Positions 8,392 to 40,321 of a stretch of DNA of 44,916 nt are shown here, in pieces; the first letter of the stretch is position 1; each line of letters opens with the position of its first letter. A program made the translations under genes and the position numbers. This DNA is from Minisyncoccota bacterium (lineage in GTDB: Bacteria > Patescibacteriota > Minisyncoccia > UBA6257 > 2-01-FULL-56-20). Under the pieces are notes generated by a model. That model made no database searches. It saw only the letters and a list, made by a program, of their open reading frames with translations, and had not been told where the DNA came from. The stretch lies in assembly GCA_036266715.1 (NCBI GenBank), contig DATAXS010000012.1:1-44916 (forward strand), read 5' to 3'.

Positions 8392-8401
8392 GGAAACAAA
8401 C

Positions 8402-15137: not shown

Positions 15138-15138
15138 G

Positions 15139-15212: not shown

Positions 15213-15220
15213 ATTCAAAC

Positions 15221-21911: not shown

Positions 21912-22566
21912 AGCGGCGGTTTTTGCCGTTGCCTGGTTTTTGCTGCCGTTCTGGCTGTTTTTCCTTATTGCGCTCTATCTCTACTTCGTTCCGCTCTTCC
22001 AGGCCGGCAAGCTTGCCGTGCCTTTTTTTGTCTTGCTCATCACTACCTACGTGCAGGCGCCTGACCCCCTCTTTATCATTGTCTTTGGCGCCGTGTTCTA
22101 TTTCCTTCTCCTTATAAAAGACCTGCTCCTCATTGACCGCCGCTCGGCGCACGAACTGCTCGTGCTCGTCCTTTCCTTCCTGCTCCTGCGGGATTTCTAC
22201 ATGGCGTTTCCACAAGGTATCAGCGGCGCGGCACTCTGGTACGCACTGTTTACGGCGATACTCGTGGCGCTCCTCGCGAGGAATCTGGTAAGAGGGGGTA
22301 CGGGTCAAGGCACCGACCTCGGCGGAGAACGCATGGCGCTTTGGCTTATTTTTTCCCTTGTCTGGCAGGCAACGATCGTGGGGCTCTTTTTGCCACTCGA
22401 CTTTGTGTATCAAATGCTCGCCGTTTTTCTCGTCGTCATCCTCGTGATAGACCTTATCCCGGATTATCTTTTTGGGACATTTGAAAGGACCAAGGCACTT
22501 ACCACGATAACCGTGGTTCTGATCCTTTTTGCCGTGATTTTGGGTTCGGCACAATGGGGGCTTTAG
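21856..22566 (+). CDS. Polytopic membrane protein (unknown function)
   Basis: Six or more hydrophobic helices. The only plausible start, ATG 21856, overlaps the clpB 3' end by 56 nt. Confidence 0.6.
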   Translation: MAEKLRSISKQIHWSLVLRAAVFAVAWFLLPFWLFFLIALYLYFVPLFQAGKLAVPFFVLLITTYVQAPDPLFIIVFGAVFYFLLLIKDLLLIDRRSAHELLVLVLSFLLLRDFYMAFPQGISGAALWYALFTAILVALLARNLVRGGTGQGTDLGGERMALWLIFSLVWQATIVGLFLPLDFVYQMLAVFLVVILVIDLIPDYLFGTFERTKALTTITVVLILFAVILGSAQWGL

Positions 22567-22605
22567 TGGGGGGGGCGAAAAATTTGCGGGTAAAGACGAG
22601 GGTCC

Positions 22606-22634
22606 TTGCCTTTGCCGGATTGCCGGATTATACT
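22606..22634 (+). promoter_or_regulatory. Promoter of the DeoR-like gene, spacer built from two TTGCCGGA octamers
   Basis: TTGCCT (22606-22611), 17 nt spacer = TTGCCGGA TTGCCGGA T, TATACT (22629-22634), 7 nt before ATG 22642. Confidence 0.6.
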
Positions 22635-22641
22635 CTGGCCT

Positions 22642-23424
22642 ATGCGGCAAAACGGCAATGGCAATCGGCAAGACAACCGGCAATCCGGCAAAACGGATCC
22701 GGCAATAATAAAGGCATATGAAATATGCTATGCCCTTTTCCGGATTGGGGCGAAGCTCCAGAACGCGGCCTTTGCCGAATCATTGGAGCGGCAAGCGCTT
22801 CGCTTGCTGAATGAGGCCATAGACGCCAACGGGGCAAAGATGCAGGATGCGGCAACGGCAATCGGCTATCTCGTGGGGTTCGGAGAGGGTATTGGATTCA
22901 TCCATCCAGGGAATGCGGAAACCATAAAAACCGAGCTCGGTGCTTTGAGCGAGCTTACGGTTTTGCCGGTTAGGACGGGATCCTCCGAAGAGGTGTCATT
23001 GGAGGATATTTTTTCTAAAAAACAGGAGCCGCTTTTTGGCGGTGGCGGCGCGGGCAAATCGGCAAGTGTCCCGGCAAACGGCAAAAGCCAATCCGGCAAT
23101 GCGGCAAAGAATAATAATGCGGCAAGCGGCAATTCGGCAATCCGGCAACCGGCAATGCGGCAAAACGAACCACCGGCTGATTTGCCGGAATTGAAATTTG
23201 ATAACGGCAACGGTGAATCCGGCAATGATAATCCGGCAATGCGGCAAACGGCAATTTTGGAGAAAATCAGGCAATCCGGCAATTGCCGATTAAAAGAGAT
23301 AGTTGAGCTTTTGCCGGATGCAAGCGAAAGGACCATCCGCTACGATCTGCAATCCCTCGTGGAGCAAAACTTGGTGGAGAGGGTGGGGAGTGGTGGCCCG
23401 ATGGTGTTCTACCGCCCCCGGTAG
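22642..23424 (+). CDS. DeoR-type HTH regulator with helical N-domain and low-complexity (N/G/Q/R/A) segments
   Basis: C-terminal RQTAILEKIRQSGNCRLKEIVELLPDASERTIRYDLQSLVEQNLVERVG resembles a DeoR/winged-helix HTH. Start moved to ATG 22642 behind the promoter. Confidence 0.7.
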   Translation: MRQNGNGNRQDNRQSGKTDPAIIKAYEICYALFRIGAKLQNAAFAESLERQALRLLNEAIDANGAKMQDAATAIGYLVGFGEGIGFIHPGNAETIKTELGALSELTVLPVRTGSSEEVSLEDIFSKKQEPLFGGGGAGKSASVPANGKSQSGNAAKNNNAASGNSAIRQPAMRQNEPPADLPELKFDNGNGESGNDNPAMRQTAILEKIRQSGNCRLKEIVELLPDASERTIRYDLQSLVEQNLVERVGSGGPMVFYRPR

Positions 23425-27420: not shown

Positions 27421-27960
27421 ATGCCCGAAAGATCAGCAAGCTCATCGCCCGCGATCCCGCTCGAGATAATTGAGCAGCGAATTTACCTTATCCGCGGCCG
27501 GAAGGTCATATTGGATAGCGATCTGGCGGAACTCTATGGCGTTGAAACAAAAAATTTCAATAAAGCAGTGAAACGGAATCTCGGCCGTTTTCCTCAAGAT
27601 TTTATGTTTAAACTTACGCAAGGAGAGGCGGATAACTTGAGGTTCCAAATTGGAACCTCAAGTTGGGGCGGTAGACGATATCTGCCATACGTTTTCACGG
27701 AGCAAGGCGTGGCGATGCTCTCCAGCGTCCTTAAAAGCGAGCAAGCTATCAGGGTAAATATCGCTATTATGCGCGTCTTTGCCCGCCTGCGGGAACTTCT
27801 TGCGAGCCATGCCGAACTTCTGCGGCGGCTGGACGATCTTGAACGGGAGCAGAAGGAACAGGGCGGACAGATAGAGCTTATCTTCGGGGCGATTCGAAAA
27901 CTGATAGAGCAGCCGATGGAGGAGCTGCCGGATCGGGAGGAAAAGAAGTTCGGCTTTTGA
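27421..27960 (+). CDS. ORF6N (KilA-N-related) domain protein
   Basis: IYLIRGRKVILDSDLAELYGVETKNFNKAVKRNLGRFPQDFMFKLT..RYLPYVFTEQGVAMLSSVLKS matches the ORF6N family pattern. C-terminal coiled coil. Confidence 0.8.
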   Translation: MPERSASSSPAIPLEIIEQRIYLIRGRKVILDSDLAELYGVETKNFNKAVKRNLGRFPQDFMFKLTQGEADNLRFQIGTSSWGGRRYLPYVFTEQGVAMLSSVLKSEQAIRVNIAIMRVFARLRELLASHAELLRRLDDLEREQKEQGGQIELIFGAIRKLIEQPMEELPDREEKKFGF

Positions 27961-28108: not shown

Positions 28109-28384
28109 ATGAACAAAAAGGGATTGGTTGAGGCGGTCATGAAGGCCGCGGAGATCGAGACGAAATCGGCGGCGGAAAAGGCCACGGAAGCGGTCTTTGA
28201 GACCATCGTGAAGACCCTTGGGCGTGGCGAAGAGGTCGCCATCGCGGGCTTTGGGACCTTCCGGGTCTACAAGCGCGCGGCGCGCGAAGGCCGGAACCCC
28301 AAGACGGGCGAAAAGATACAGATCAAGGCGTCCGTAAAGCCGAAGTTCCGCGCGGGAAAGCTCCTCAAGGAGGCAGTCAAATAA
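28109..28384 (+). CDS. hup: DNA-binding protein HU
   Basis: MNKKGLVEAV...GFGTFRVYKRAAREGRNPKTGEKIQIKASVKPKFRAGK is a typical HU/IHF fold sequence. Confidence 0.93.
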   Translation: MNKKGLVEAVMKAAEIETKSAAEKATEAVFETIVKTLGRGEEVAIAGFGTFRVYKRAAREGRNPKTGEKIQIKASVKPKFRAGKLLKEAVK

Positions 28385-28389
28385 AGTCG

Positions 28390-28465
28390 GCACATATAAC
28401 AAAGGGGGGTTTTGAAAAGAGTACTAAGAAGGGCTCTTTTCAAAACCCCCCTTTGTTATATGTGC
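28390..28465. terminator. 76-nt perfect hairpin (32-bp stem) between convergent genes; conserved-core family
   Basis: gcacatataacaaaggggggttttgaaaagag / tactaagaaggg / exact reverse complement. Confidence 0.8.
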
Positions 28466-28483
28466 ATCCTTTCTTAGCCACCC

Positions 28484-29275
28484 TTATTGTCCGGAGGCCG
28501 AGGATGCGGCGGGGAGAAGCTGCTGCACGATGGTGCTTATGTTCGAAAATTTCTGGTAGGCGTCCGAGAGCGATTGGAGCGAAGAGGTGATGAGCGAGAG
28601 GGTCGCTTCGGATGGTTCGGACTGCATGAGCGCGTTTTCCGCGGAGTTGTTTTCTTGGACTGCGGTCGTGATGAGCGACTGCGCGCTCGTGAGATCCTGC
28701 GCGAGGTCAGGGTTCGGCGCGGCTTGTTCCATAAATGAGACCAGGTTTTGTACCTCGCCGAGGCGGTTTTGCGCGGTCGTAAAAAGGTTTTGATTCTCGG
28801 ACCACAGGACGAAGTTGGCGACCTGGTCTGCAAGGGGATCGTACGTGCCGGCCCGCCACGCAAGGATCTCGTTCGCTACCCCTTCCGTGCCCGCAATGCC
28901 GGCATTGTTCACCTTTGCGAACTCAAGGCCGTAGTAGTTCATGGCGTCATCCAATTTGCCGGAGAGCTGGGATTGGAGCGCGGCGGTGGCCGCGTTCGTT
29001 TGGACGCCTGCGAGGTCCGTCTGGAGCGCCTGGACGTTCTCTTCCGCGCACGTGATGATGCGGGTGAGGAGCGCCTTCCGGGCCGCAAGTTCGGCGGTGA
29101 GGCTCTGTGCCTGCGCGGCGGCTATTGCCGCGAGATCATCCTGCGTGATGGTGCACGTGGGGGTCGCGGCCTGTGCCACAGTCTGGGCTTGGGCAAGCGG
29201 GGCAGCCAAAACGCCCACAGCGAGGAAAAACGCGGCGAACAGCGCACCTATGAAAGCGGTTTTGGAATAGTTCAC
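28484..29275 (-). CDS. Secreted alpha-helical protein (unknown function), last gene of the sigma operon
   Basis: Signal peptide ..LAAPLAQAQ, A/Q/L/T-rich helical repeats, 263 aa. Confidence 0.65.
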   Translation of the reverse strand: MNYSKTAFIGALFAAFFLAVGVLAAPLAQAQTVAQAATPTCTITQDDLAAIAAAQAQSLTAELAARKALLTRIITCAEENVQALQTDLAGVQTNAATAALQSQLSGKLDDAMNYYGLEFAKVNNAGIAGTEGVANEILAWRAGTYDPLADQVANFVLWSENQNLFTTAQNRLGEVQNLVSFMEQAAPNPDLAQDLTSAQSLITTAVQENNSAENALMQSEPSEATLSLITSSLQSLSDAYQKFSNISTIVQQLLPAASSASGQ

Positions 29276-29321
29276 GGGTTTGGTTATCGGATACTAGCTT
29301 ACAATAAAAACGGCCGAATGC

Positions 29322-29846
29322 CTATTGGCCAAGCGCCTGGAGGGCCTGGTCAAGAGTAACCGTCGTAGTTGCGGAACTCGTGGCGCTTGAGCTTGCTCCC
29401 GCGCCCGGGACGCCGTTTATGGCCGTGGAAGACGCAAAGAGCGATGCGGTTGCGGGAGTCGTTGCGCCTGCCGTGGAAGAGCTTACGGACACGCTCGTGA
29501 TCGGCGCCGTGGACTCGGCCGCGGGTTCGCTGTAGTTCAATTGGGCGAGCTCTATCTGCATATCAATAGCTTCTGCTTCCGCGTGCAAGCTTGAGGGGTC
29601 AATTGCGGAATACTTCATAGGCGCAAGTTCGGAGCCGGGGAGCCCGCCGAGCACGATGAATATGAAAAATACGGTGAGCGCCACGGCCACGCCGGTCTCT
29701 ACGATAGTGAGGATGGTCCGACGCACGGTCCAGGGCTTCCGCGTGGCACCGGGCTCCACAGCCAAAATCGCCCGCTTGGAAGTGGCTGAATAGGACGCGT
29801 CAGGTTCAATATTCTTAAATTGTTTGAGGATTTCCTGGATGTTCAT
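29322..29846 (-). CDS. Single-pass membrane protein, putative anti-sigma factor
   Basis: Directly downstream of the sigma gene (5-nt gap). Short cytoplasmic N-terminus, one TM helix, S/T/A-rich exterior. The role is inferred from position only. Confidence 0.5.
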   Translation of the reverse strand: MNIQEILKQFKNIEPDASYSATSKRAILAVEPGATRKPWTVRRTILTIVETGVAVALTVFFIFIVLGGLPGSELAPMKYSAIDPSSLHAEAEAIDMQIELAQLNYSEPAAESTAPITSVSVSSSTAGATTPATASLFASSTAINGVPGAGASSSATSSATTTVTLDQALQALGQ

Positions 29847-29851
29847 AGCTT

Positions 29852-30397
29852 TTATTCTTCGCTTTCGCCCATGATCCGCTGAAGTTCTTTTATTGCGCGG
29901 TGCTGCATGAGTTTTACTGCACCCTCGCTCTTGTGGAGCATCTGCGCAATTTCTTTCAATGAGAGTTCTTCTATAAAGCGGAAGACGATGATGTCCTGAT
30001 AATCCGACTTGAGCTCGCCGATCGCTTTCCTTACTTTCTCTACGTCCAGCTTGAGCGAAAGGTCGAACGTCGCGCTCGCGGGAAGGACAAAATACTCGGG
30101 ATCCATCTTTTCCAAGCTGGTTTCGTTCTTCTTCGCGCGATAGTGGTCAACGACCTGGTTCCGCGCGATCTGGTAGAGCCAACTGGAGAACGGATGTCCC
30201 TGATATTTGTATCCCTTGATGTTCTGCCATGCGGCGAGGAACACCTGGTGGGTAATATCCTCGGCATCCTCACGGCGCGCAACTTTCACAAGGACGAACC
30301 GATAGATCATCGGTTGGTAATGCTCAAATAGCGTGCCAAATGCCGAGGATTTACCCCCGACGGCCTGCTTTATAATGGCTTGTTCACCGTCTAACAT
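29852..30397 (-). CDS. ECF-type sigma-70 family RNA polymerase sigma factor
   Basis: Region 2 (..DITHQVFLAAWQNI..WLYQIARNQVVDHYR..) and region 4 HTH (LSLKEIAQMLHKSEGAVKLMQHRAIKEL). Confidence 0.88.
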   Translation of the reverse strand: MLDGEQAIIKQAVGGKSSAFGTLFEHYQPMIYRFVLVKVARREDAEDITHQVFLAAWQNIKGYKYQGHPFSSWLYQIARNQVVDHYRAKKNETSLEKMDPEYFVLPASATFDLSLKLDVEKVRKAIGELKSDYQDIIVFRFIEELSLKEIAQMLHKSEGAVKLMQHRAIKELQRIMGESEE

Positions 30398-30482
30398 AGG
30401 GAACGTTATAACTGGTTACTGGTTACTGCAACGCCTGCGTATTTCATGTTTCGGGGCTTTTACGCCTATTTTTCCAAACAAA

Positions 30483-30502
30483 ATGCCCTCTTTTTAGGGC
30501 AT
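30483..30502 (-). terminator. Hairpin terminator downstream of the 30543 gene
   Basis: atgccct / cttttt / agggcat, followed on the minus strand by tttgttt. Confidence 0.5.
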
Positions 30503-30542
30503 GGTGATTATTCGTTGATTATACTCTTTTACGGCCCCGAGG

Positions 30543-30983
30543 TCAAAGAAGTTGCCGCAATTCCTCCCACGAATTGACGCGCGTTACTGCGTCGTAAGCC
30601 GCTTTATATTTTTCCGCCTCTTCCGCGCGCGGGCCGCCCTCGCGGAGCGCGTAGCGATTGGGGACGGTCGTGAGGGTGTTGAGCACCTGCAGGCGGTCGT
30701 CCACAAAATGCGTGACGGCAAGGTCGGCGCAAATGGCCGCCTTGTCTTCATAGCGCATACAGAAATGCAGGTTGCTCCGCGGGATACCGGTGGAGTTCCA
30801 AAAATCGAGCGCCTTGAGGCGCGCGAGGAAGATTGCGCGTGTTATGGGGTGAGCTTTGGATACAATATGAATTTCTTTGAAGCGGCCGGAAGCCGCGATC
30901 TCCCGCAAATTTGCGAGCGACCCCGGCACACTGCCGCCCCAGGTATAAAAGATTACATCGCCGCAATCAACACCGAGTACCAT
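30543..30983 (-). CDS. Hypothetical protein (possibly HAD-like fold)
   Basis: Start moved to ATG 30983 (MVLGVDCGDVIF..), because the longer ORF to 31112 would collide with the divergent gene at 31091. Function not recognised. Confidence 0.55.
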   Translation of the reverse strand: MVLGVDCGDVIFYTWGGSVPGSLANLREIAASGRFKEIHIVSKAHPITRAIFLARLKALDFWNSTGIPRSNLHFCMRYEDKAAICADLAVTHFVDDRLQVLNTLTTVPNRYALREGGPRAEEAEKYKAAYDAVTRVNSWEELRQLL

Positions 30984-31090
30984 CCGCGTATGGTAACAAA
31001 ATGATATCGTTGACGCAAACTGCTGAACATGGTAATAGTTAGTTGTTCTTTGTAATAACACAGATTTTTTTAAAGGCGAGGAGAGCAGAG

Positions 31091-31426
31091 ATGGCCATAC
31101 AGCAGATGACACTCAGAAGGTTCCTTGTAAAAAAGCTTGGCGAGGCCGTGGAAGACACTCGCGATCGCACCCAACAAACAAAATCGAGCGTGCCCGACAC
31201 GATCGAGAATGTTGTCCTCAAGTTGAGGCGGGGGATCACGGAACGCACGCTCCGTCCGCTTCTCAAGGAGTATTTCGGAGTTTCCGATTCCCAGATGATC
31301 GTGCGGCCCGGCTTCGTATTTGTAAGAGGGGTGCCGGGAGAGGCGCCGAGCTACGCGGCGGTCATCCAGTACAGCGGGATATTTGCAGGGGGCTCCATCA
31401 GCATCAATCTCACCAAGCATTCTTGA
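31091..31426 (+). CDS. Hypothetical protein (111 aa)
   Basis: ATG 31091 preceded by gaggagag (SD-like). No domain recognised. Confidence 0.5.
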   Translation: MAIQQMTLRRFLVKKLGEAVEDTRDRTQQTKSSVPDTIENVVLKLRRGITERTLRPLLKEYFGVSDSQMIVRPGFVFVRGVPGEAPSYAAVIQYSGIFAGGSISINLTKHS

Positions 31427-31518
31427 ATGATGCGCACGCAACGTGCGCACGGCCCGCCGACAAAATTTTGGCGGGCTTTTTCATAGCGGTGGGCAAAAGT
31501 TCCCCGTCGATATGCGAG

Positions 31519-31592
31519 GCACAGAAAGGAAAATCCCCTTCGTGGCCATTAAAAAGAGCCCATGGCTGCGAAGGGGATTTTCCTTTCTGTGC
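31519..31592. terminator. Long hairpin (24-bp stem) abutting the 3' end of tRNA-Gly
   Basis: gcacagaaaggaaaatccccttcg (31519-31542) pairs perfectly with 31569-31592. The loop contains AAAAGAGCCC. Confidence 0.7.
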
Positions 31593-31594
31593 TG

Positions 31595-31666
31595 AGCGGG
31601 TAACGGGAGTCGAACCCGTATCTGTACCTTGGCAAGGTACCATAATAGCCGCTATACGATACCCGC
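31595..31666 (-). tRNA. tRNA-Gly (anticodon GCC)
   Basis: Reverse complement reads GCGGGTA..TAGCGGCTATTA..GTACC-TTGCCAA-GGTAC..CGGGTTCGACTCCCG..TACCCGC-T. No encoded CCA. Confidence 0.9.
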
Positions 31667-31707
31667 TTTACGAACTCATTGTATATTGTTTTTGAAAATT
31701 ATCAATA

Positions 31708-31736
31708 TTGAAAATTTGGCCCGCGTCTAGTATGCT
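31708..31736 (+). promoter_or_regulatory. Promoter of tRNA-Arg
   Basis: TTGAAA (31708-31713), 17 nt spacer, TATGCT (31731-31736), 10 nt before the tRNA 5' end. A TTGATA-16-TACAAT promoter on the other strand serves tRNA-Gly. Confidence 0.55.
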
Positions 31737-31746
31737 CAAGACCTAA

Positions 31747-31821
31747 GCCCTCGTCGTTCAATGGATAGGACGCAAGATTGCGGATCTTGTAATCGAGGTT
31801 CGATTCCTCGCGGGGGCACCA
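31747..31821 (+). tRNA. tRNA-Arg with anticodon GCG, encoded CCA
   Basis: Acceptor GCCCTCG/CGGGGGC, D arm GTTC-AATGGATA-GGAC (A20 present), anticodon arm CAAGA-TTGCGGA-TCTTG, T arm CGAGG-TTCGATT-CCTCG, ACCA end. Confidence 0.8.
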
Positions 31822-31823
31822 CG

Positions 31824-31889
31824 AGCAACGCAGGGCGGATTTGAAAAGAGCCCTTCTTAGTACTCTTTTCAAATCCGCCCTGCGTTGCT
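31824..31889. terminator. 66-nt perfect hairpin (27-bp stem) after tRNA-Arg and after the convergent 31896 gene; conserved-core family
   Basis: agcaacgcagggcggatttgaaaagag / cccttcttagta / exact reverse complement. The core equals the 28390-28465 core, inverted. Confidence 0.8.
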
Positions 31890-31895
31890 TCTTTA

Positions 31896-32363
31896 TTAGA
31901 ACCGGAGCAACTTTTCAATAGAATCGAGGAGCGTGGGTTCGTAGGGGACTTCCTTCAATATTGTTTTTGTGTTGGCGCGGAAGGCGGCGAGGTGTTCGGC
32001 AGGAAAAAGGATTTTGAGCGGCGTTTTGAAGCGCGCGCGGAACACGAAGACCATTTCGGCGAAACCGTCCGCGGGCGTGTCCACGCTCATAGTTTCAAAG
32101 TTCCTAAACGAATATGAGCGGATATCATCGATAGTGATACTCGTTTCGTTCGCCGTGAAAGAGATCATGCGCGGCGTGCGGTTGCCCCAGACAATAAAGA
32201 GGACCTCCGCGAGCACGATGAAAAGCCCAAAAAGAAAATTTTTTTCCCACACGGAGAATGCGACGATAATTGCGGCGATAATAATAGAGAGCCAGTACCA
32301 CGAGACACCCTTCTCGCGGTATTCAAATTCCGGCGCTTCCCATTTTATTTCAAATGATGCCAT
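31896..32363 (-). CDS. Small two-TM membrane protein with soluble C-terminal domain (unknown function)
   Basis: 155-aa ORF with two adjacent hydrophobic helices after ..EKGVSWYW. Confidence 0.6.
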   Translation of the reverse strand: MASFEIKWEAPEFEYREKGVSWYWLSIIIAAIIVAFSVWEKNFLFGLFIVLAEVLFIVWGNRTPRMISFTANETSITIDDIRSYSFRNFETMSVDTPADGFAEMVFVFRARFKTPLKILFPAEHLAAFRANTKTILKEVPYEPTLLDSIEKLLRF

Positions 32364-32399: not shown

Positions 32400-33131
32400 C
32401 TAGGCCCGCAGGGCCGCAAGCGCGACCACGGTCCCCACCCCCGCGCGTTTGAGCGCGGTCGCCGCCTCAAGGAACGTGGTTCCAGTCGTGGTCACATCGT
32501 CTATAAGAATGATGTTTGTTCCCGCGAGCGGCCGCCGGACGAAAAAACATTCGCGCAGGTTCTCCTGGCGTTCATGAGCGCTTTTTGTTTCTGTCTGTGG
32601 CTTGGTGTGGCGGATACGTATGAGTGTTGAGCCGTCGCACGGCAGGCCAAGATACGCCGCGACGGGTCTCGCAAGAAGTTCTGCCTGGTTGAACCCCCGC
32701 GTCCGGAGCCGCCGGCGCGAAAGGGGGATGGGAATCACCACGAAATCGTGAAAACCGTCAAAAAGCGAGCCAACAGACGCGAGATATTCCTTTATTATAG
32801 AGGCGAGCGGTTCCGCGGCCCTGCGCGCGGCACGGAACTTGAGTGCGTGGACGAGTGCCCGGAGCGGGCGGTTGTCGTATTGTGCCGCGGCGCCAAGAAC
32901 GTAGGGAAAATCGGGATGGCACAATGCCTTTCCGCCAAAAAGTCGCTCGCCGCAGGCACCGCAGAAAAGGGTGCGGGCGATCGTGACCTGCCCGCGGCAG
33001 GTTTCACAGAGCACCGTCCCGTTCCCGGCGCCAAAACCCGCGCCCGCGCCGCAAGCCGCGCTTTTCCCGCATCCCAAGCACCTGCGCGGGAATAAAATAG
33101 ACGCGAGCACGTCCGTAAGATGGAGCTTCAT
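32400..33131 (-). CDS. comF: ComF-family protein (phosphoribosyltransferase domain, N-terminal Zn-finger)
   Basis: CxxC..CxxC N-terminus (RRCLGCGK.. / LCETCRG.. / FCGACGE), C-terminal PRTase loop ILIDDVTTTGTTF. Confidence 0.85.
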   Translation of the reverse strand: MKLHLTDVLASILFPRRCLGCGKSAACGAGAGFGAGNGTVLCETCRGQVTIARTLFCGACGERLFGGKALCHPDFPYVLGAAAQYDNRPLRALVHALKFRAARRAAEPLASIIKEYLASVGSLFDGFHDFVVIPIPLSRRRLRTRGFNQAELLARPVAAYLGLPCDGSTLIRIRHTKPQTETKSAHERQENLRECFFVRRPLAGTNIILIDDVTTTGTTFLEAATALKRAGVGTVVALAALRA

Positions 33132-33171
33132 GGTATGATGATAAACAAATAGGCATTAAAACGTTCTAAAA

Positions 33172-34254
33172 ATGGCAGGCCTTTTTAATATTTTTTCATC
33201 CCATCCCTCTTCTTACCTTGGCGTGGACATTGGCACCACTTCTATAAAGGTGGTGGAGGTACGGAAGGGGGGCAAGCGGCCGCAGGTCACGAATTACGGC
33301 CTCCTGGAATCAAGCGGTTATCTTTCGCGCGCCAACCAGGCGCTCCAGACAAGCAGTTTAAAGATCTTCGAGGCGGACATCGTGGGACTTTTAAAAACAG
33401 TCGTTCGCGAAATGGGAACGGGCACCAAGAGCACGATCGCGTCGCTCCCGCCCTTCGCCGTGTTCACGACCGTTATTGATTTTCCGCAAATGGACGCCAA
33501 AGAAGTGGAGAAGGCGATGCTCTACCAGGCAAAACAATATGTGCCGCTGCCGCTTTCGGAAGTGGCGTTGGATTGGATGAAGGTCGCGGAATACCAGGAC
33601 GAGCAGGGATTCGTCCACCAAAAAATGCTTTTGATATCGGTGCCTACGGAGCAGATCCAAAAATATCAGCGGATGTTCAAAGCGGCGGGGCTCGTGCTTC
33701 AGGCGCTCGAGATGGAAAGCATCAGTCTCGCGAGGATGTTTTCGGGTGACGGAACGCCCACGATCGTTGTGGACATAGGCAGCCGTTCCACGAATATTAT
33801 CTTCATGGAAAAGGGGCAGCTGCTCTGGAACGCGCAGAGCGATTTCGCGTCGGCCTCGCTCACGCAGGCGCTTGCCACGAGTTTGAGCGTGAACCCGCTC
33901 CGCGCGGAGGAATTAAAGAAGGAACGCGGCATTTTGGGTACTGGCCCGAACTATGAACTGTCCACAATAATGATGCCGTTCCTGGATGCTATAATTAATG
34001 AAGTAAAGAAGGCGCAGTTCACCTTCGCTCAGCAGTTCGCCCAGGCGGCCAAGGCGGAACGAGTTGTCCTTTCGGGCGGTGGCGCGAACCTCCTGGGCAT
34101 TGAGAAATATTTTGAGCGAGAGTTCGGGATGCCCGTCGTGAAAGCTGCGCCCTTCGTCCAGTTTGAGTATGCGGCCGAGCTCGCACCGCTCGTCGCGGAG
34201 CTGAATCCAGTGATGACGGTGGCGCTGGGACTCGGGATCAAATCATTCCTATAA
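33172..34254 (+). CDS. pilM: Type IV pilus assembly protein PilM (actin-like ATPase fold)
   Basis: YLGVDIGTTSIKVVEV phosphate-1 motif, ..VVDIGSRSTNI.., ..VVLSGGGANL.. Confidence 0.88.
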   Translation: MAGLFNIFSSHPSSYLGVDIGTTSIKVVEVRKGGKRPQVTNYGLLESSGYLSRANQALQTSSLKIFEADIVGLLKTVVREMGTGTKSTIASLPPFAVFTTVIDFPQMDAKEVEKAMLYQAKQYVPLPLSEVALDWMKVAEYQDEQGFVHQKMLLISVPTEQIQKYQRMFKAAGLVLQALEMESISLARMFSGDGTPTIVVDIGSRSTNIIFMEKGQLLWNAQSDFASASLTQALATSLSVNPLRAEELKKERGILGTGPNYELSTIMMPFLDAIINEVKKAQFTFAQQFAQAAKAERVVLSGGGANLLGIEKYFEREFGMPVVKAAPFVQFEYAAELAPLVAELNPVMTVALGLGIKSFL

Positions 34255-34276
34255 AAAGTTATAAATTTTCAATAAA

Positions 34277-34873
34277 ATGCCGCTTCCCCAACAAGTCATA
34301 GACCGCCTGACCCATGAATCACCGAGAACGCCGGGATGGTCCGTGGGAATACTTCTTTTTTCCCTGGGGCTGCTTGTGATCGCGCTCGCGGTCTACTTCG
34401 GCATCACGCTTTTTTACGAGCCGTACGTGAACGGGCAGATATCTTCGGTGAATGCCGAGATCACGGCTGCCGCCTCGTCCATCTCTCCTTCGGACCAGAC
34501 CAACCTTGCGGCATTTTATTCCGAGGTCGCGAACGTGCAATCGGCGCTTGCAAACCACGTGTACTTTTCCCATCTTCTCACATGGCTCGGGCAAAATACC
34601 GAAGCGAATGTGTATTACACCCATTTCACGTTTTCTTCCGGGAACCAGATCGGGCTTTCGGGGGTCGCCGCGAGCGAAGCGGACGTGAACCAGCAGATGG
34701 CGATCTTTGAAGCATCGCCGGAAGTGTCCCAGGCAACAATATCCACCGTGTCCCTTCTTCAGGCGAACAACACGTGGCAGTTCAGCGTCACGCTTACCAT
34801 GAACGCGCCGCTCGTGTTCGGTGCCACCGTCCCGTCGTCCACGGCGGCATCCGCCTCGACCACCACCCCATAA
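34277..34873 (+). CDS. pilN: PilN-like pilus assembly protein
   Basis: Single N-terminal TM helix followed by a ferredoxin-like periplasmic-type domain. Position directly after pilM. Confidence 0.65.
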   Translation: MPLPQQVIDRLTHESPRTPGWSVGILLFSLGLLVIALAVYFGITLFYEPYVNGQISSVNAEITAAASSISPSDQTNLAAFYSEVANVQSALANHVYFSHLLTWLGQNTEANVYYTHFTFSSGNQIGLSGVAASEADVNQQMAIFEASPEVSQATISTVSLLQANNTWQFSVTLTMNAPLVFGATVPSSTAASASTTTP

Positions 34874-34877
34874 CACC

Positions 34878-35489
34878 ATGCAACAGAGCTCCAAACGATT
34901 GTTCAGCATCATCATTTCCCTCGCGTTTGCGGTGTTCGCGCTTTTGGCACTCTTTGAATTTATAGAGCCGGCGTACGGGGACCTCATGACGGCGAAAGGG
35001 CAGCTTGTGAGCGATAAGGCATATTTGGCCACGGAACAGCAGACCGTGAGCCAGGCGCAATCGTTATTGAGCACCGTGCAGAGCCAAAGTGGTACGGAAA
35101 GTGCCTTGGAACTTGCAATGCCCTCGGGGCCGGACGTTTCGGGCGCGCTTGCCCAGGTGTACGGCATTGCGGCGAATGACGGCATCGCGATACAAAACAT
35201 GAGCGTTTCGCCCCCGACCGTTCAGCTGCAGGCCGCCATGGGCGCTTCCGGCGCGACCACGCTCGCCGCCATTGTAAAGCCCATGGGGGATGTTTCGTTC
35301 CAGGTGACCGCTACGGGAAGCTACGAAAATTTTGCGACGTTCCTCGCGGACCTTGAGTCCAATGTCCGTATTTTTGACATGACATCGTTCTCACTCCAGC
35401 AGGGAGCGACGGCAGGCACAAAGGGTGGGAGCGGGACGGATCTTTTTACCTACAGCTTTACGGTCGAAACCTATTACCAGCTGCAATAA
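34878..35489 (+). CDS. pilO: PilO-like pilus assembly protein
   Basis: Start at ATG 34878 (MQQSSKRLFSII..), 4 nt after the pilN stop. TM helix, coiled coil, C-terminal alpha/beta domain (..TGSYENFATFLADLESNVRIFD..). Confidence 0.65.
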   Translation: MQQSSKRLFSIIISLAFAVFALLALFEFIEPAYGDLMTAKGQLVSDKAYLATEQQTVSQAQSLLSTVQSQSGTESALELAMPSGPDVSGALAQVYGIAANDGIAIQNMSVSPPTVQLQAAMGASGATTLAAIVKPMGDVSFQVTATGSYENFATFLADLESNVRIFDMTSFSLQQGATAGTKGGSGTDLFTYSFTVETYYQLQ

Positions 35490-35491
35490 CC

Positions 35492-35797
35492 ATGGCCATC
35501 ATTATTGAAGAAGAGAAAAACAATACGAGAGGCCTCGCCCAGGCCGCGGGGTGGCTTGTCATGCTGATCGTGCTCGGGGCGGCGGCATACTATCTTTTCT
35601 TTGCGCCCGCGGGGACCTCCACCGTCACGCCCCCTGCGAGCTTTTCGGAAATAGCGTCACTCACGCAACTCTCGGTCAGTCCGCAGGCGGTGCTCCAAAG
35701 CCCGCAGTTCACGTCGCTCAAATCACCTTCGTTCCCGCTTCCCGCACCGTCCGGTCCCGCGGCCGTTGGCCGCCCGAACCCGTTCATCGCGCCATAA
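35492..35797 (+). CDS. Small single-pass protein in the pilMNO operon (PilP position, unknown family)
   Basis: 101-aa ORF starting 2 nt after the pilO stop. One TM helix and a Pro/Ser-rich tail. Confidence 0.55.
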   Translation: MAIIIEEEKNNTRGLAQAAGWLVMLIVLGAAAYYLFFAPAGTSTVTPPASFSEIASLTQLSVSPQAVLQSPQFTSLKSPSFPLPAPSGPAAVGRPNPFIAP

Positions 35798-35825
35798 GGG
35801 CCTTTTCGTATGTTAGAATTGAATA

Positions 35826-37553
35826 ATGACCTCCGAAGAACTCCTTCAACAAATGCAAAAAGGCGGGCTTGTGGATGCCACGCTTGCAAACCGGCTCAGA
35901 CGCGACTCCATCATAAGCGGCGAACCCATAGAAGCCGTGATCGCCAAGAGCCGGGCGGTGGATGACGTAAAGATCGCGGAGCTCAAGAGTTCACTACTCA
36001 AGGTACCGTACAAAAAAGTATCGCCGAACGACATTGACGCAAAGCTCCTGGAGGCCATTCCCGAAGAAACGGCACGGACGTACCAGGCGATCCCCGTTTC
36101 GCTCCAAGACAATTTGCTTGTGGTCGGCATGCTCCATCCGGATGACTCCAAGGCGCAAGAGGTTTTGAAGTTCATTGCGCGGCAGGGCCACATGAATCTT
36201 GGCGTCTATCTCATTTCGTACGGCGACTGGGAAGCGGTGCTCAAAAAATATTCGCCGTACCGCACGGAGATCGCAAACGCGGTCCAATCGCTCAATTTTA
36301 AAACAGGCGGTTCGGAAGGCGCCCAGCGAATGATAAGTCTGGAGGATTCGGGCGGCAGCGAGGAAGGGCCGGTCATTAAAATTGTGGCGGACACGCTCCG
36401 CGAGGCGGTTACGTCCAAGGCGTCGGACGTGCACATTGAGCCCCAGCAGAATTCGCTGCGCATCCGGTTCCGCGTGGACGGCGATCTCCACCAGGTGGCG
36501 TCGCTCCCGATCCAGCTCGCCCAGCCGGTCGTCTCGCGCGTGAAGGTCGTCTCAAGCCTGAAGATCGACGAGACGCGCATGCCGCAGGATGGGCGGTTCC
36601 GTTCGCACATTTTGGACCGCGACATCGACTTCCGCGTGGCGACCTTCCCCACGCCGCTCGGGGAGAAGGTGGCCATCCGCGTACTTGACCCCGAAGCGGG
36701 GCTGAAGAGCTTTGATAATTTGCCTCTGCGCTACGGGAACTTGGAACTCGTGAAGGCGGGGCTTGAGAAACCATTCGGCATGGTGCTCATTACCGGGCCG
36801 ACCGGTTCCGGAAAAACCACGACGCTGTATGCCTTCCTGCAAAGTTTGAACCACGAGGATGTGAACATTGTTTCGCTTGAAGATCCGGTGGAATATTTTG
36901 TTTCCGGCATCAACCAGTCGCAGGTGCGGCCGGAGATCGGCTACGACTTTGCGTCGGGCTTGCGGCAGATATTGCGGCAGGACCCGGACGTCATTATGGT
37001 CGGCGAAATTCGGGACAACGAGACAGCGGGACTTGCCGTGCAAGCGGCCCTGACCGGGCACGTGGTATTGAGCACGCTCCACACAAACAACTCTGCGGGT
37101 GTTATCCCGCGGCTCGTGGACATGAAGGTTGAACCATTCCTTTTGCCGGTCTCTCTTAACTTGATGATGGCCCAACGGCTCGTGGGCCAGCTCTGCCCGG
37201 ATTGTAAATTTGCCGAAGAAGCTTCTGCCGACCTGCAGAAAGTGATCCAACACACGCTTGAAGGGCTGAAGCAGGAGATCGCGGGGAAATACAACGAGCC
37301 ATACAAAATTTTCCATACAAAGGGGTGCACGACGTGCAAGGGGAAGGGCATTCTTGGCCGCATGGCGCTCTACGAAGTGCTCCGCATGACGCCGGCGCTC
37401 GGCGAGATCGTGGCTGAGGGCGCGAATTTGCAGAGGATCATCAAAGAAGCAAAGGCGCAGGGGATGGTCACGTTGCGGCAGGATGGCGTGATGAAGGCGC
37501 TGGATGGGTTTGTGTCTATAGAGGAAGTGGTCAGAGAAACGGAGGAGCTATAG
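35826..37553 (+). CDS. pilB: Type IV pilus assembly ATPase PilB (GspE family)
   Basis: N-terminal GspE_N-type domain, LITGPTGSGKTTTLYA Walker A, Asp/His boxes, tetracysteine motif CPDC..CTTCKG. Confidence 0.92.
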   Translation: MTSEELLQQMQKGGLVDATLANRLRRDSIISGEPIEAVIAKSRAVDDVKIAELKSSLLKVPYKKVSPNDIDAKLLEAIPEETARTYQAIPVSLQDNLLVVGMLHPDDSKAQEVLKFIARQGHMNLGVYLISYGDWEAVLKKYSPYRTEIANAVQSLNFKTGGSEGAQRMISLEDSGGSEEGPVIKIVADTLREAVTSKASDVHIEPQQNSLRIRFRVDGDLHQVASLPIQLAQPVVSRVKVVSSLKIDETRMPQDGRFRSHILDRDIDFRVATFPTPLGEKVAIRVLDPEAGLKSFDNLPLRYGNLELVKAGLEKPFGMVLITGPTGSGKTTTLYAFLQSLNHEDVNIVSLEDPVEYFVSGINQSQVRPEIGYDFASGLRQILRQDPDVIMVGEIRDNETAGLAVQAALTGHVVLSTLHTNNSAGVIPRLVDMKVEPFLLPVSLNLMMAQRLVGQLCPDCKFAEEASADLQKVIQHTLEGLKQEIAGKYNEPYKIFHTKGCTTCKGKGILGRMALYEVLRMTPALGEIVAEGANLQRIIKEAKAQGMVTLRQDGVMKALDGFVSIEEVVRETEEL

Positions 37554-37666
37554 CATGTAATATTATTGAACCCGCTGCGGACTCGGAAGCACCTGTTCGA
37601 AAAAAATGCCGCCCCCTCGCCTTCGGCATTCGAGTGCAGTTTTATTAAAAATTTATTAAACGTCCC

Positions 37667-37694
37667 TTGACGTTTAATCTTTTGGTCTTATACT
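37667..37694 (+). promoter_or_regulatory. Orphan sigma-70-type promoter in the pilB-pilT spacer
   Basis: TTGACG (37667-37672), 16 nt spacer, TATACT (37689-37694). Confidence 0.5.
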
Positions 37695-37700
37695 GACAAC

Positions 37701-37785
37701 GGGTAACGGTAGCTCGTATAAATTACGAGCTCATAACTACTTCTCAGTAAGAATGGCTGCTTCAGCGGCCGTTTTTATTTCTTTT
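37701..37785 (+). ncRNA. Candidate small RNA (about 85 nt) bounded by a promoter and an intrinsic terminator
   Basis: Hairpin agctcgta/tacgagct (37711-37731), single-stranded ACTACTTCTCA (37736-37746), terminator ggctgc-ttca-gcggcc (37755-37770) plus gtttttatttctttt. Confidence 0.35.
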
Positions 37786-37949
37786 AGATAGTTTTAATGG
37801 ATCTTTTGCTACTTTGAAGTTGCCCAAGTGACCATGGGCCCATAGTTTAACGAGTAAAACCGCTACCCTTGAGAAGTAGTGAATCGGGTGCAAGGCCCGA
37901 TGGGTCCACTAGGGCCGCGCGCGGGATATAAATATGCTAAAATAAACCC

Positions 37950-39023
37950 ATGGATGACTATAAAGGGAAGCTCGCGGAACTCCTGACCGCGTGCGCGAAG
38001 CAGAATGCGTCGGATCTCCACATTGCCGTGGGGCGCAGGCCCACGCTCCGCATAGACGGCCTCCTCGTGCCGCTCCAAAAGGAGCCCATCACGACGCCGG
38101 AGATCGCGGAAGGCATCATTGGAGAAATGATAACGTCCGAGCAGAAGCAGAAGCTTTTAGCCCAGCGCCAGATAGACTTTGCCTACAGCTTTGAGGATAA
38201 GGCGCGCTTCCGCGTGAACGCGTATTTCCAGCGGGGATACCTTGCGGCTGCGCTCCGGCTCGTGCCAAACCGCATCAAGACAATAGAAGAGCTCAATTTG
38301 CCACCGCTTCTCCACGATTTCGGAAAACTTTCGCAGGGATTTGTGCTTGTGGTGGGCCCGGCAGGGCACGGCAAATCTTCCACGCTCGCCGCGATCCTGG
38401 ACGAGGTGAACCACACACGCTCGGACCATATTATTACCGTTGAAGACCCGGTGGAATATCTGTTTACGCAGGACAAGTGCATCGTCTCCCAGCGCGAAGT
38501 GGGTTCGGACACCATGAGCTTTCACGCCGCGCTCCGCACGATCCTCCGGCAGGACCCGGACGTCGTCATGATCGGCGAGATGCGCGATTCGGTCTCCATC
38601 GGCACCGCCATGACGGCGGCAGAAACCGGCCACTTGGTGCTTTCAACGCTCCACACGAACTCTGCCTCTCAAACCATAGACCGTATCATTGACTCGTTCC
38701 CGGCCGAACAGCAGGGCCAGGTGACGTCCCAGCTCGCGGCGACGCTTGTTGCCATCGTTTCGGAGCGGCTCCTGCCGCGGCTCTCGGGCGGACGCGTGCC
38801 TGCGATGGAGATTATGATCGTGAACCCCGCCATCCGCAACCTCATCCGCGAACGGAAAACGTACCAGATAGATCTTGTGATAGAAACGAGCCTGCAGGAA
38901 GGGATGGTGACGCTCAATCGCTCGCTCGTGAACCTCGTGAAGAACAAGGAGATATCGCTCGAGAACGCGGAGCTCTATTCGTTGAACCCTGCGGAATTGA
39001 GGATTCTTCTTGAGAGGTCATAA
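37950..39023 (+). CDS. pilT: Twitching-motility / retraction ATPase PilT
   Basis: ..ASDLHIAVGRRPTLRIDG.., VVGPAGHGKSSTLAA Walker A, ..HLVLSTLHTNSA.., 357 aa typical of PilT. Confidence 0.92.
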   Translation: MDDYKGKLAELLTACAKQNASDLHIAVGRRPTLRIDGLLVPLQKEPITTPEIAEGIIGEMITSEQKQKLLAQRQIDFAYSFEDKARFRVNAYFQRGYLAAALRLVPNRIKTIEELNLPPLLHDFGKLSQGFVLVVGPAGHGKSSTLAAILDEVNHTRSDHIITVEDPVEYLFTQDKCIVSQREVGSDTMSFHAALRTILRQDPDVVMIGEMRDSVSIGTAMTAAETGHLVLSTLHTNSASQTIDRIIDSFPAEQQGQVTSQLAATLVAIVSERLLPRLSGGRVPAMEIMIVNPAIRNLIRERKTYQIDLVIETSLQEGMVTLNRSLVNLVKNKEISLENAELYSLNPAELRILLERS

Positions 39024-39033
39024 TTTTTAGGAA

Positions 39034-40254
39034 ATGAAGTTCAAGTATCAGGCAAAAACAAAAGCGGGCGAACTCCAGGCCGGCTTTGTGGACGCCGGCA
39101 GCCGCGATGGCGCGCTGAACATTCTCGCGGGGCATGATCTCTTCGTGCTTTCCGTGGAATCGGCGGAGCAAAAAGGGAGTTTGGATCGCATCAATTCGTT
39201 CCTCAACCGCCCGCGGCGGAAGGACATTATCATCTTTGCACGCCAGCTCGCGACGCTCCTTGAGGCGCGCCTGCCGCTCAACAACGCGCTGAAGATCCTT
39301 GCCGAGCAGACCACGAATACGCGGCTTAAAGAGGCAATTTTGGAGATCGCGCAAGACGTGGATTCGGGCCTCTCATTTTCCCAGGCGATGGAGCGGCAGT
39401 CGGAAGTGTTCCCGGATTACTACATAGAGATGGTGCGTGCGGCGGAGGTCACAGGAAATTTGAACGAAGTGGCGACGTTCCTTGCAGACTACACGGAAAA
39501 AGAGGGCGACCTTGCGGGCAAAGCATCCTCGGCGCTTATATACCCCGGCATCGTGCTCGGCCTCTTTGTGGTCGTGGCGTTCATTCTTCTCACTTTTGTG
39601 TTTCCCTCCATCGGGTCGGTCTTTTCCGAAAATAACGTGGCGCTCCCGTGGTACACGCAGGTGCTTCTCACCGTCGGGAACTTCCTTTCCAAGTGGTGGA
39701 TCGCGGTCATCATCGGCGTGGGCGCGCTTGGTTTCGTGTTGGTTGACTATTTTGAAACGGACGAAGGCAAGGCGCTTGCGGACGAGGCAAAAATTCGTCT
39801 TCCCGTCGTAAAAAAAGTATATCTGCCCGTCATTATGGCGCGATTCGGGAACGCGGCATCGCTCCTTGTGCACGGCGGCATTCCCATCGCACAAGGGTTG
39901 GAAATTATCAGCCACATGGTAGGGAATGTGCTTTATAAAGATGTGGTCCACGAGATCGGCGACGACGTGCGGCAGGGGAAACTTCTTTCGGAGAGCATTA
40001 GCGCGCACCCGGACTTTTTCCCGGCGCTCGTTTCGCAGATGGTTGCGGTGGGCGAGACGACCGGAAAGACGGAAGAGATGTTCAAGCGGCTTGCGGGCAT
40101 CTATACGCGGGACGCGGACCAGATATCCGGCAACCTCGTGGACCTCATCCAACCGATCCTCATGATCGGGATGGGCATCATGGTGGGCCTGCTTTTTGCC
40201 TCTATTCTGATACCGATTTATAGCCTCACGGCGAACATAGGGAACAGCGGGTAA
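39034..40254 (+). CDS. pilC: Type IV pilus platform protein PilC (GspF family)
   Basis: Two GspF-type repeats with three TM segments, 406 aa. Confidence 0.9.
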   Translation: MKFKYQAKTKAGELQAGFVDAGSRDGALNILAGHDLFVLSVESAEQKGSLDRINSFLNRPRRKDIIIFARQLATLLEARLPLNNALKILAEQTTNTRLKEAILEIAQDVDSGLSFSQAMERQSEVFPDYYIEMVRAAEVTGNLNEVATFLADYTEKEGDLAGKASSALIYPGIVLGLFVVVAFILLTFVFPSIGSVFSENNVALPWYTQVLLTVGNFLSKWWIAVIIGVGALGFVLVDYFETDEGKALADEAKIRLPVVKKVYLPVIMARFGNAASLLVHGGIPIAQGLEIISHMVGNVLYKDVVHEIGDDVRQGKLLSESISAHPDFFPALVSQMVAVGETTGKTEEMFKRLAGIYTRDADQISGNLVDLIQPILMIGMGIMVGLLFASILIPIYSLTANIGNSG

Positions 40255-40321
40255 GCCCTTTTCCATGAGCTTTCTGCCTCATACGAGGGACGAATTCGGC
40301 AGAAAGCTCATGGAAAAGGGC
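40255..40321 (+). terminator. 67-nt hairpin (24-bp perfect stem) starting one base after the pilC stop
   Basis: gcccttttccatgagctttctgcc (40255-40278) pairs with 40298-40321. 19-nt loop tcatacgagggacgaattc. Confidence 0.7.

Follow-up and report, generated by a model that had tools for sequence, protein, structure and literature searches.

What are two long, perfect hairpins doing in one bacterial genome with the same apical sequence, in opposite orientation, on different outer stems? The question arises in a 44,916-nucleotide stretch of a Minisyncoccota genome (contig DATAXS010000012.1, analysed in full and called the window below), where the two hairpins, H1 and H2, lie directly downstream of a protein gene and a tRNA gene. 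An initial annotation made from the letters alone had offered two answers: an oriented palindromic element resembling repetitive extragenic palindromic (REP) sequences or miniature inverted-repeat transposable elements (MITEs), or a recognition loop mounted on locus-specific stems. On sequence grounds, H1 and H2 belong to a family of dispersed extragenic palindromes restricted to one lineage, which we call family 1. We put at about an even chance the reading that this family is REP-like, that its apical loop is selected and that it works at RNA ends.

Two inverted hairpins with one apical module

The relevant hairpins of the window are as follows.

28390–28465, + strand: H1, canonical family-1 hairpin; 32-bp perfect stem, loop TACTAAGAAGGG on the + strand, sense to the gene for an HU-type protein
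28411–28444, + strand: H1 apical module, 34 nt; 11-bp A/T-rich inner stem TTTGAAAAGAG, 12-nt loop at 28422–28433, mirror arm
31824–31889, − strand: H2, canonical family-1 hairpin; 27-bp perfect stem, loop TACTAAGAAGGG on the − strand
31840–31873, − strand: H2 apical module, 34 nt; loop at 31851–31862
31519–31592, no strand assigned: H3, probable degenerate relative; 31-nt arms, 94% complementary, 12-nt loop TAAAAAGAGCCC, containing AAAAGAGCCC

All that the initial annotation said of the stems and loops of H1 and H2 holds, both on direct reading and in an inverted-repeat scan. The + strand loop of H2, CCCTTCTTAGTA, is the exact reverse complement of the H1 loop. Direct reading also reproduced the reported 34-nt identity, between 28411–28444 of H1 and 31840–31873 of H2 after inversion, and the swap in the next base pair out (T-A in H1, A-T in H2). 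The 28-nt centre of H1 and H2 occurs exactly twice in the window against none expected (100 shuffles); the 12-mer loop alone is not significant there, with two matches against 1.67 expected when up to two mismatches are allowed. Folded as RNA from either strand, H1, H2 and H3 have predicted energies between −53 and −61 kcal/mol and z-scores between −10 and −15 (H1, −58.6 kcal/mol, z −12.4).

H3 had been proposed as a third relative with a 24-bp stem. The perfect outer 24 bp are present at 31519–31592, and two transition mismatches in the arms give G-U pairs on the + strand only. Its kinship comes down to a weak score: a covariance model of the family (R1) gives 86.5 bits to H1, 79.7 bits to H2 and 32 bits (E 3e-7) to H3, compared with about 21 bits for three other long hairpins of the window, which is near the score of any long hairpin. 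By this measure of its sequence, H3 is a probable member.

Family 1 is confined to a narrow lineage

The initial annotation had suggested looking for the core in other genomes. The 34-nt core and its loop are present in relatives, always on long hairpins and at gene, tRNA or rRNA ends, which makes these elements more than independent generic terminators, as that annotation had held. The exact 34-mer has two matches among 185,579 species genomes, both in the Minisyncoccia metagenome-assembled genome (MAG) SPRUCE 393, which is another species than that of the window (77% nucleotide identity in a sigma factor gene and 65% protein identity in ORF155, an open reading frame (ORF) next to H2). A 20-mer query consisting of the loop and 4 bp on each side found ten loci in two MAGs of this collection, SPRUCE 393 and MFD01476, plus 16 metagenome contigs; to judge by the style of their identifiers, nearly all of these contigs come from the SPRUCE peat bog. 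In the DNA run that contains the window, the core appears in two or more additional copies with different flanks, and the contigs end at H1 and H2. In all, about 22 distinct hairpins carry the family loop; they occupy about 19 independent loci, and 18 of the hairpins have perfect Watson–Crick stems of 26–33 bp. The SPRUCE393 assembly (0.77 Mb) has about nine copies, spread around the chromosome. Two loci, L001 and L002, carry near-identical whole-element paralogues at unrelated places. The search pattern behind this collection included the loop.

Beyond this lineage, model R1 found no member outside SPRUCE393 in 1.15 Mb from 80 related Paceibacteria loci, and 0.83 Mb of loci taken from further genomes, most of them of Patescibacteria, contain only four perfect stems of at least 20 bp. 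A Saccharibacteria MAG (L084) has perfect 26–32-bp hairpins with unrelated loops at 1573–1653 and 2559–2620, both within 1 kb and one of them starting 7 nt past a tRNA-Gly; long perfect hairpins thus arise sporadically in other lineages.

Several origins were considered and rejected. Rfam at gathering thresholds returned tRNA and rRNA only for the window and 19 loci, and a permissive scan of H1 gave only sub-threshold, generic look-alikes of miRNA precursors, so we discarded a known Rfam RNA family. We also dismissed a phage or plasmid origin: the 20-mer is absent from IMG/VR, four degenerate 18-mer matches had no hairpin context, and BLAST of H1 against phage and plasmid collections gave no match. 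Assemblies made independently (NCBI, JGI and Logan) have the elements at the same orthologous sites, which rules out an assembly artefact. RNA-run searches for these genomes listed one run, with 6% of words and unrelated fragments only, and literature searches returned no description of such elements in Patescibacteria.

The apex is conserved on stems that covary

Family-1 elements measure about 66–78 nt and are dispersed and extragenic. Their apical module consists of a 9–11-bp A/T-rich stem and the 12-nt loop TACT[A/C][A/G]GAAGGG. We aligned 17 distinct perfect copies (alignment A1). In this alignment the apex is invariant or nearly so, and the 11-bp A/T-rich inner stem varies mainly through A-T to G-C exchanges. 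Outward from it come one unconstrained pair, a G/C clamp at pairs 13–15 and the outer stem, in which the 5' arm is purine-rich and the 3' arm is 72% pyrimidine, C-rich at 13–15 and T-rich at 16–24. The outer stems had been called unrelated, which is true of H1 and H2; across the family they have a common layout and graded similarity, and subsets at different loci have outer-stem sequence in common (L001/L002; L003/L006/L008/L010).

Pairing in the inner helix is strict. All 19 pairs in all 17 sequences are Watson–Crick, with no one-sided change and no G-U pair, and 15 of the 19 pairs show double changes, a level that no shuffled or slid control approached. Stem differences, both between copies and between orthologous sites, are mirrored on the two arms. 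Four further copies with a canonical loop have one to four internal mismatches, on stems longer than the perfect ones.

Copies collected without selection on the loop included the loop variants TACTCGGAAGGG and TACTCAGAAGGG, which change positions 5–6 only. Among these copies, by our own count, about 5% of positions had changed in the loop, about 22% in the inner stem and about 50% in the outer stem. At orthologous sites the apex is preserved from species to species even as the stems and the intergenic DNA nearby diverge, and we therefore consider the apex to be under purifying selection.

The anatomy departs from that of an intrinsic terminator in two respects: the 12-nt loop is outside their range of 3–8 nt, and the stem is not G/C-rich throughout, its only G/C clamp being at pairs 13–15. 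No T-run follows the full stem; a T-rich run does come after the C clamp, paired with the 5' arm. This run is missing from the copies in the rRNA spacer. We also tried and rejected a promoter reading of the core, in which TTGAAA is present without a −10 box at the right spacing. At L002 4320–4360 (SPRUCE393), the family-1 3' arm supplies a −35-like TTGCTG 17 nt upstream of the TATACT box of the sigma gene; L002 is the only copy whose outer arm gives such a box.

Family-1 hairpins stand at the ends of genes and stable RNAs

The genes that flank H1, H2 and H3 are the following.

28109–28384, + strand: HU-type DNA-binding protein gene (Pfam PF00216, E 4.5e-30); stop 5 nt before H1
28484–29275, − strand: convergent ORF of 263 aa, no Pfam match; stop 18 nt beyond H1
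31594–31666, − strand: tRNA-Gly(gcc), called by ARAGORN and Rfam; 3' end abuts H3
31747–31821, + strand: tRNA-Arg(gcg), CCA encoded, called by ARAGORN and Rfam; 3' end 2 nt from H2
31896–32363, − strand: ORF155, conserved hypothetical protein, convergent with tRNA-Arg; stop 6 nt from H2

H1 thus begins 5 nt past the HU stop codon and ends 18 nt short of the convergent stop. H2 begins 2 nt past the encoded CCA of tRNA-Arg(gcg) and ends 6 nt short of the ORF155 stop, with its − strand loop TACTAAGAAGGG sense to ORF155 and antisense to the tRNA. H3 sits 1 nt beyond the 3' end of tRNA-Gly(gcc). Homologues of ORF155 number 271, and those with names belong to Minisyncoccia/Paceibacterota MAGs.

The initial annotation had placed all three hairpins at 3' ends, and at distances of 5, 2 and 1 nt they are there. 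Family-wide the statement is too broad, since two copies lie in divergent promoter regions and two in a 23S–5S spacer:

tRNA 3' ends, starts at −4 to +4 nt, 7 loci: Gly(ccc), Gly(gcc), Arg(ccg), Arg(cct), Arg(gcg), Ile(gat), Ser(gct)
23S–5S spacer of the SPRUCE393-type rRNA operon, 2 loci
0–17 nt past stop codons, 8 loci: HU, KhpA, L31/response regulator, HtrA, NTP-transferase, unnamed ORFs
Between divergently transcribed genes, 2 loci: L002 and L009:3920

Fifteen of about 19 loci fall within −4 to +17 nt of the 3' end of a tRNA, 23S rRNA or ORF, the exceptions being L002, L009:3920, L004:6118–6181 (upstream of 5S) and L012:560. About half of the loci adjoin stable-RNA genes (tRNA 3' ends and the 23S–5S spacer); by our estimate, such genes are roughly 6% of all genes in comparable genomes.

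In the rRNA operon, at L012 14019–14210 (equal to L004 6101–6293), the 23S–5S spacer is almost wholly made of two family-1 hairpins with complementary loops, in the order 23S end, 14 nt, hairpin, 22 nt, second hairpin with its loop inverted, 15 nt, 5S. The spacer is 191 nt long in the SPRUCE393 lineage, as opposed to 72–99 nt with no long hairpins in the two relatives in which it could be delimited, which indicates that the hairpin pair was gained. In the same operon, the match to 23S rRNA is interrupted at L004 6293–8000, with a 147-aa ORF inside (6696–7139, − strand). This may be an rRNA insertion or intron, as reported in bacteria of the candidate phyla radiation.

Orthologous sites gain, lose and rebuild the element

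At the ORF155/tRNA-Arg(gcg) site, the closest relative found (L229, 87% protein identity) has the H2 element in the same place and orientation. Of the 27 stem positions, 6 have changed, all of them mirrored, and the loop is unchanged; by eye, the intergenic DNA between tRNA-Arg and tRNA-Gly is far more diverged than the hairpin. At the 3' end of KhpA, SPRUCE393 (L005) and its close relative L024 have 100% identical flanking genes. Their hairpins there differ at about 12 positions of the stem and by an indel of 2 nt, and every one of these changes is mirrored. Only these two have the family element at this site, and 11 of 13 more distant relatives have an ordinary GC-stem/U-tract terminator there. 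Mirrored indels also separate L003 from L010 after tRNA-Arg(ccg).

After tRNA-Gly(gcc), MFD01476 (L009) has a canonical element and the window the degenerate H3, and no hairpin element was found at this position in SPRUCE393 or L229. Among other Patescibacteria, 34 of 119 tRNA-Gly genes have a perfect inverted repeat of at least 10 bp within 12 nt downstream, mostly of the A-tract/GC/T-tract kind. The HU 3' end in L237 carries an ordinary GC hairpin. Loop orientation was the same in 24 of 24 pairs of copies with matching flanks, mostly from near-identical strains; the loop is therefore not a fast switch, and switch-like inversion was discarded on this ground.

The tRNA-Arg(gcg) gene itself is inverted relative to ORF155 in the window and L229, and co-directional with it in L230, L232 and L234–L238; as read from these sequences, the difference is a local inversion next to the hairpin. 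In L233, a large serine recombinase gene (Resolvase/Recombinase/Zn-ribbon, 1385–2728) lies beside tRNA-Arg(gcg), which suggests an integrated element at that tRNA.

Relatives carry a second loop family

At the 3' end of ORF155, three relatives (L230, L232 and L237) have other perfect hairpins, with stems of 22–24 bp and loops of 18–24 nt. These family-2 and related hairpins are:

L230, 2992–3058: hairpin A
L230, about 3086–3149: hairpin B
L237, 10485–10552
L232, 2990–3051

The loops of L230A, L230B (inverted) and L237 are homologous, with 17 of 19 nt in common between L230A and L230B, and the stems of the three are unrelated. L230A sits 27 nt upstream of L230B, the two adjacent loops being inverted. 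L230B and the L237 hairpin stop 3–5 nt before the 5' end of a co-directional tRNA-Arg and have no T-rich arms; to judge by this layout, the tRNA-Arg of L230 and L237 must be transcribed through family-2 hairpins. The second family indicates that a conserved loop on free perfect stems beside an RNA-processing site, in either orientation, is general in the clade.

A proposed role at RNA ends

These data bear on both answers offered at the outset. The REP/MITE-like element survives as a dispersed palindrome family without the MITE hallmarks of target-site duplications and insertion-sequence (IS) terminal inverted repeats. The recognition loop on locus-specific stems survives in the conserved loop and variable stems, except that outer stems are common to subsets of loci. 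The two alternatives are probably two sides of one thing.

We propose that a copy, once transcribed, would form a hairpin (−45 to −60 kcal/mol) and so set or protect the end of an RNA. In most gene-end copies, the C clamp followed by a T-rich run in the 3' arm would form a two-way intrinsic terminator. The rRNA-spacer copies, which are without the T-rich run, might instead be an exonuclease stop or an RNase III-type double-strand processing site by the RNase P/Z cuts, and the family-2 hairpins 3–5 nt upstream of tRNA-Arg could have the same processing or exonuclease-stop role. Placement, exchange with canonical terminators and the C-clamp/T-rich arm together argue that gene-end copies act as transcript-end hairpins, probably terminating in both directions. 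A broader role, in processing or in stopping exonucleases, is suggested by the copies in the rRNA spacer and by the family-2 hairpins that precede tRNA-Arg. A PNPase gene lies in the window. The loop is more conserved than the stems and the neighbouring intergenic DNA, which argues for sequence-specific selection, and a lineage-specific protein or partner RNA presumably reads it.

The stems call for an explanation of their own. Perfect arms, mirrored indels and the lack of G-U pairs are probably better explained by arm-to-arm templated copying than by slow compensatory mutation. Such copying would be template switching (quasipalindrome correction) that keeps the arms perfect; it is documented that template switching both makes and maintains hairpins (PMC8794818). 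New copies would come from some copying step, and because its flanks are palindromic the module could be installed in either orientation. A bolder form of the proposal, which we regard as speculative and on balance unlikely, is an undescribed 'punctuation' system in a Minisyncoccia clade, in which at least two conserved loops on long perfect hairpins would stand beside the processing sites of tRNA, 23S/5S rRNA and housekeeping mRNA, with a dedicated lineage-specific reader and palindrome-templated DNA copying in either orientation.

Several points weigh against a role at RNA ends. Termination, cleavage and stabilisation of RNA are all inferred from the elements and their surroundings. No binding factor or copying enzyme was identified among the neighbouring genes scanned by Pfam. 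Stems are not always perfect, given the four mismatched copies with canonical loops and H3, and the invariance of the loop is partly ascertainment because the search pattern contained it. An uninterrupted U-tract beyond the stem is absent, the loop exceeds those of classical terminators, and the rRNA-spacer copies cannot be efficient terminators. The copies at L002 and L009:3920 sit between divergent genes. Relative to the transcript, the loop is sense at about 10 and antisense at 4 independent loci, which is not significant, and two tRNA-adjacent loci have it antisense; this weak bias and these antisense loops make an RNA-level reader of the loop insecure. Near-free orientation, gains at new sites and the L001/L002 paralogues also keep a REP-like mobile reading alive.

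Alternative explanations

Taken to its end, mobility leads to purely selfish DNA palindromes of the REP/REPIN or MITE type, in which the apex would be the site of a transposase-like enzyme (for example of the HUH/Y1 RAYT type, acting on folded single-stranded DNA), gene ends would tolerate insertion and any effect on RNA would be incidental. We think this possible, though unlikely. It fits a dispersed and lineage-restricted family with copies in both orientations, a presence that varies from relative to relative (at KhpA, tRNA-Gly, HU, ORF155 and the rRNA spacer), the gain of an inverted pair in the 23S–5S spacer, like a REP doublet, and the near-identity of L001 and L002 at unrelated loci; the weak orientation bias would suit recognition at the DNA level. 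However, no target-site duplications were seen, the neighbours examined by Pfam include no transposase (full genomes were not searched), viral, phage and plasmid collections hold no copies, and the copy number is low, at about nine in 0.77 Mb. The loop and inner stem are kept at orthologous sites where adjacent DNA has diverged, which speaks for long retention and not for recent spread, and known mobile hairpin families keep their stems, not their loops (PMC2800124). Near-free orientation would equally suit sites for a protein that binds double-stranded or cruciform DNA (in the nucleoid, replication or recombination) and reads the asymmetric 12-bp centre, with inverted repeats promoting extrusion. 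Arms that are strictly Watson–Crick without G-T, as if both strands must fold, and copies spread around the chromosome are in line with this idea. We nevertheless hold it to be improbable: tight placement at the ends of RNA genes and ORFs and the replacement of terminators point to transcripts, the half-sites covary, unlike those of dimeric proteins, which are conserved, the 12–24-bp spacers match no known recombinase core, and no flips occur between strain-level orthologues.

The remaining explanations stay with RNA. Ordinary two-way intrinsic terminators, with an apex kept for folding or by descent and no trans-acting factor, would account for the C clamp, the T-rich 3' arm and the gene-end positions. 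Relatives have perfect palindromic terminators at the same places, and the tRNA-Arg terminator of L230 resembles a family-1 outer stem minus the module. An identical 12-nt loop across species on randomised stems is not expected on this account, nor are copies within the rRNA spacer or in divergent promoter regions. The same genomes also have classical terminators (in the window, 31451–31477 followed by T5), and the second loop family lies 3–5 nt upstream of a co-directional tRNA without U-rich arms, all of which leaves this account with a low probability. We consider it very improbable that the hairpins are precursors of small RNAs diced by RNase III, or kissing-loop partners that pair sense and antisense loops. 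Perfect 26–33-bp duplexes would be ideal RNase III substrates, and both adjacent pairs (the L004/L012 rRNA spacer and L230 A/B) have complementary loops. The stems, however, are homologous between copies and not target-like, and with two adjacent pairs known the chance that both are opposite is 0.25. On inspection, the loop looks like a Shine–Dalgarno sequence, the sarcin–ricin AGUA/GAA motif or an anticodon loop (CUAAGAA); none of these likenesses extends to the family-2 loops.

Comparison with known systems

Family 1 resembles REP/REPIN sequences in being short extragenic palindromes at gene 3' ends or between convergent genes, in both orientations, with inverted doublets and species-specific families, and REPs are reported to act on mRNA 3' ends (preprint 10.64898/2026.03.23.713779). 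REP/REPIN families differ in having a conserved stem and a 5' GTAG over hundreds of copies, whereas family 1 has free, perfectly paired stems, a conserved apex and about ten copies per genome, half of its loci being at tRNA or rRNA genes. No RAYT was found among the Pfam-examined neighbours of family-1 copies. With bidirectional intrinsic terminators the family shares its position directly after genes and tRNAs, the palindromic A-tract/GC/T-tract layout and the KhpA site; it differs in its 26–33-bp stem, its conserved 12-nt loop, its interrupted and paired T-rich run, and its members inside an rRNA operon and in promoter regions. The iron-responsive element, phage boxB and the histone mRNA 3' stem-loop are alike in placing a sequence-specific loop on a merely pairing stem in many unrelated transcripts. 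Their stems are short and tolerate G-U pairs and bulges, their orientation is fixed and their binding protein is known.

Organellar genomes provide two further parallels. The inverted repeats at chloroplast and plant mitochondrial mRNA 3' ends are also stable stem-loops at RNA 3' ends, and they are processing or stabilising signals, not terminators, according to Stern and Gruissem (1987) and Dombrowski et al. (1997) as they figure in the references of PMC2800124. We propose this role, by analogy, as a model for the rRNA-spacer copies and the family-2 hairpins upstream of tRNAs. Unlike family 1, these repeats form no sequence family with a shared loop, and their stems are imperfect. The repetitive hairpin-forming elements (RHE, double-hairpin elements) of mitochondria are likewise dispersed hairpins in intergenic regions by tRNA genes and form lineage-specific families; their stems are conserved and their loops variable (PMC2800124), the reverse of family 1. 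MITEs were rejected: the flanks of 13 copies have no target-site duplications or other direct repeats, and there is no plasmid, phage or viral match. Integron attC sites were rejected as well: these have R/L boxes conserved at the foot of the stem, a variable centre and extrahelical bases, and lie in cassette arrays next to an integrase, whereas family 1 is conserved at its apex, has perfect stems and occurs as single copies after housekeeping or RNA genes.

Bacteria of the candidate phyla radiation have tiny genomes, and their RNA metabolism is almost unstudied. Our data suggest that one lineage has swapped ordinary terminators for a standard hairpin module and has also put it into its rRNA operon. 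The loop stays constant across species while the 26–33-bp stems turn over completely with base pairing kept. If the loop has a reader, it would belong to a new recognition system for RNA ends (or DNA); if the perfect arms come from template switching, they would be a clean natural example of hairpin maintenance. The elements break short-read assemblies of these organisms and are possible lineage markers.

Other features of the window

Three further long hairpins lie in the window.

8400–8466, + strand: HA, after the PNPase gene; 17-bp perfect outer stem, imperfect apex with AGAGTAC, then T5; about 21 bits with R1
15137–15213, + strand: HB, after an RNaseH-like gene; apical motif AGAGTACGGAnCnACnCTGCC in common with HA
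40255–40321, + strand: HC, immediately behind the PilC/T2SSF stop codon; 24-bp perfect stem, 19-nt loop

HA and HB have the apical motif AGAGTACGGAnCnACnCTGCC, of about 20 nt, on unrelated 17-bp perfect outer stems. Its AGAGTAC part also opens the family-1 loop, and among the focal-lineage loci searched the motif occurs in the window only. HA and HB may be distant relatives of family 1, either decayed or a sister sub-family. The HC loop is marginally similar to family-2 loops found in relatives (uncorrected p of about 0.02).

A small conserved hairpin at 30483–30502 lies between the promoter and the start codon of an extracytoplasmic function (ECF)-type sigma factor gene. It is found in relatives (AGCAAAATGCCCT...AGGGCATTTTGCT) at L002 4369–4395, L237 about 13690–13720 and L238 3252–3286, and could be a leader, an attenuator or a small RNA. 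A type IV pilus/competence-like cluster (ComF-like DZR_2/Pribosyltran, PilM and T2SSF) occupies 32400–40254, and an ORF6N-domain protein is encoded at 27421–27960, beside the HU gene. At 22606–22705, inverted copies of TTTGCCGGATTGCCGG stand 50 nt apart and overlap long ORFs on both strands (21901–22683, −; 22606–23424, +).

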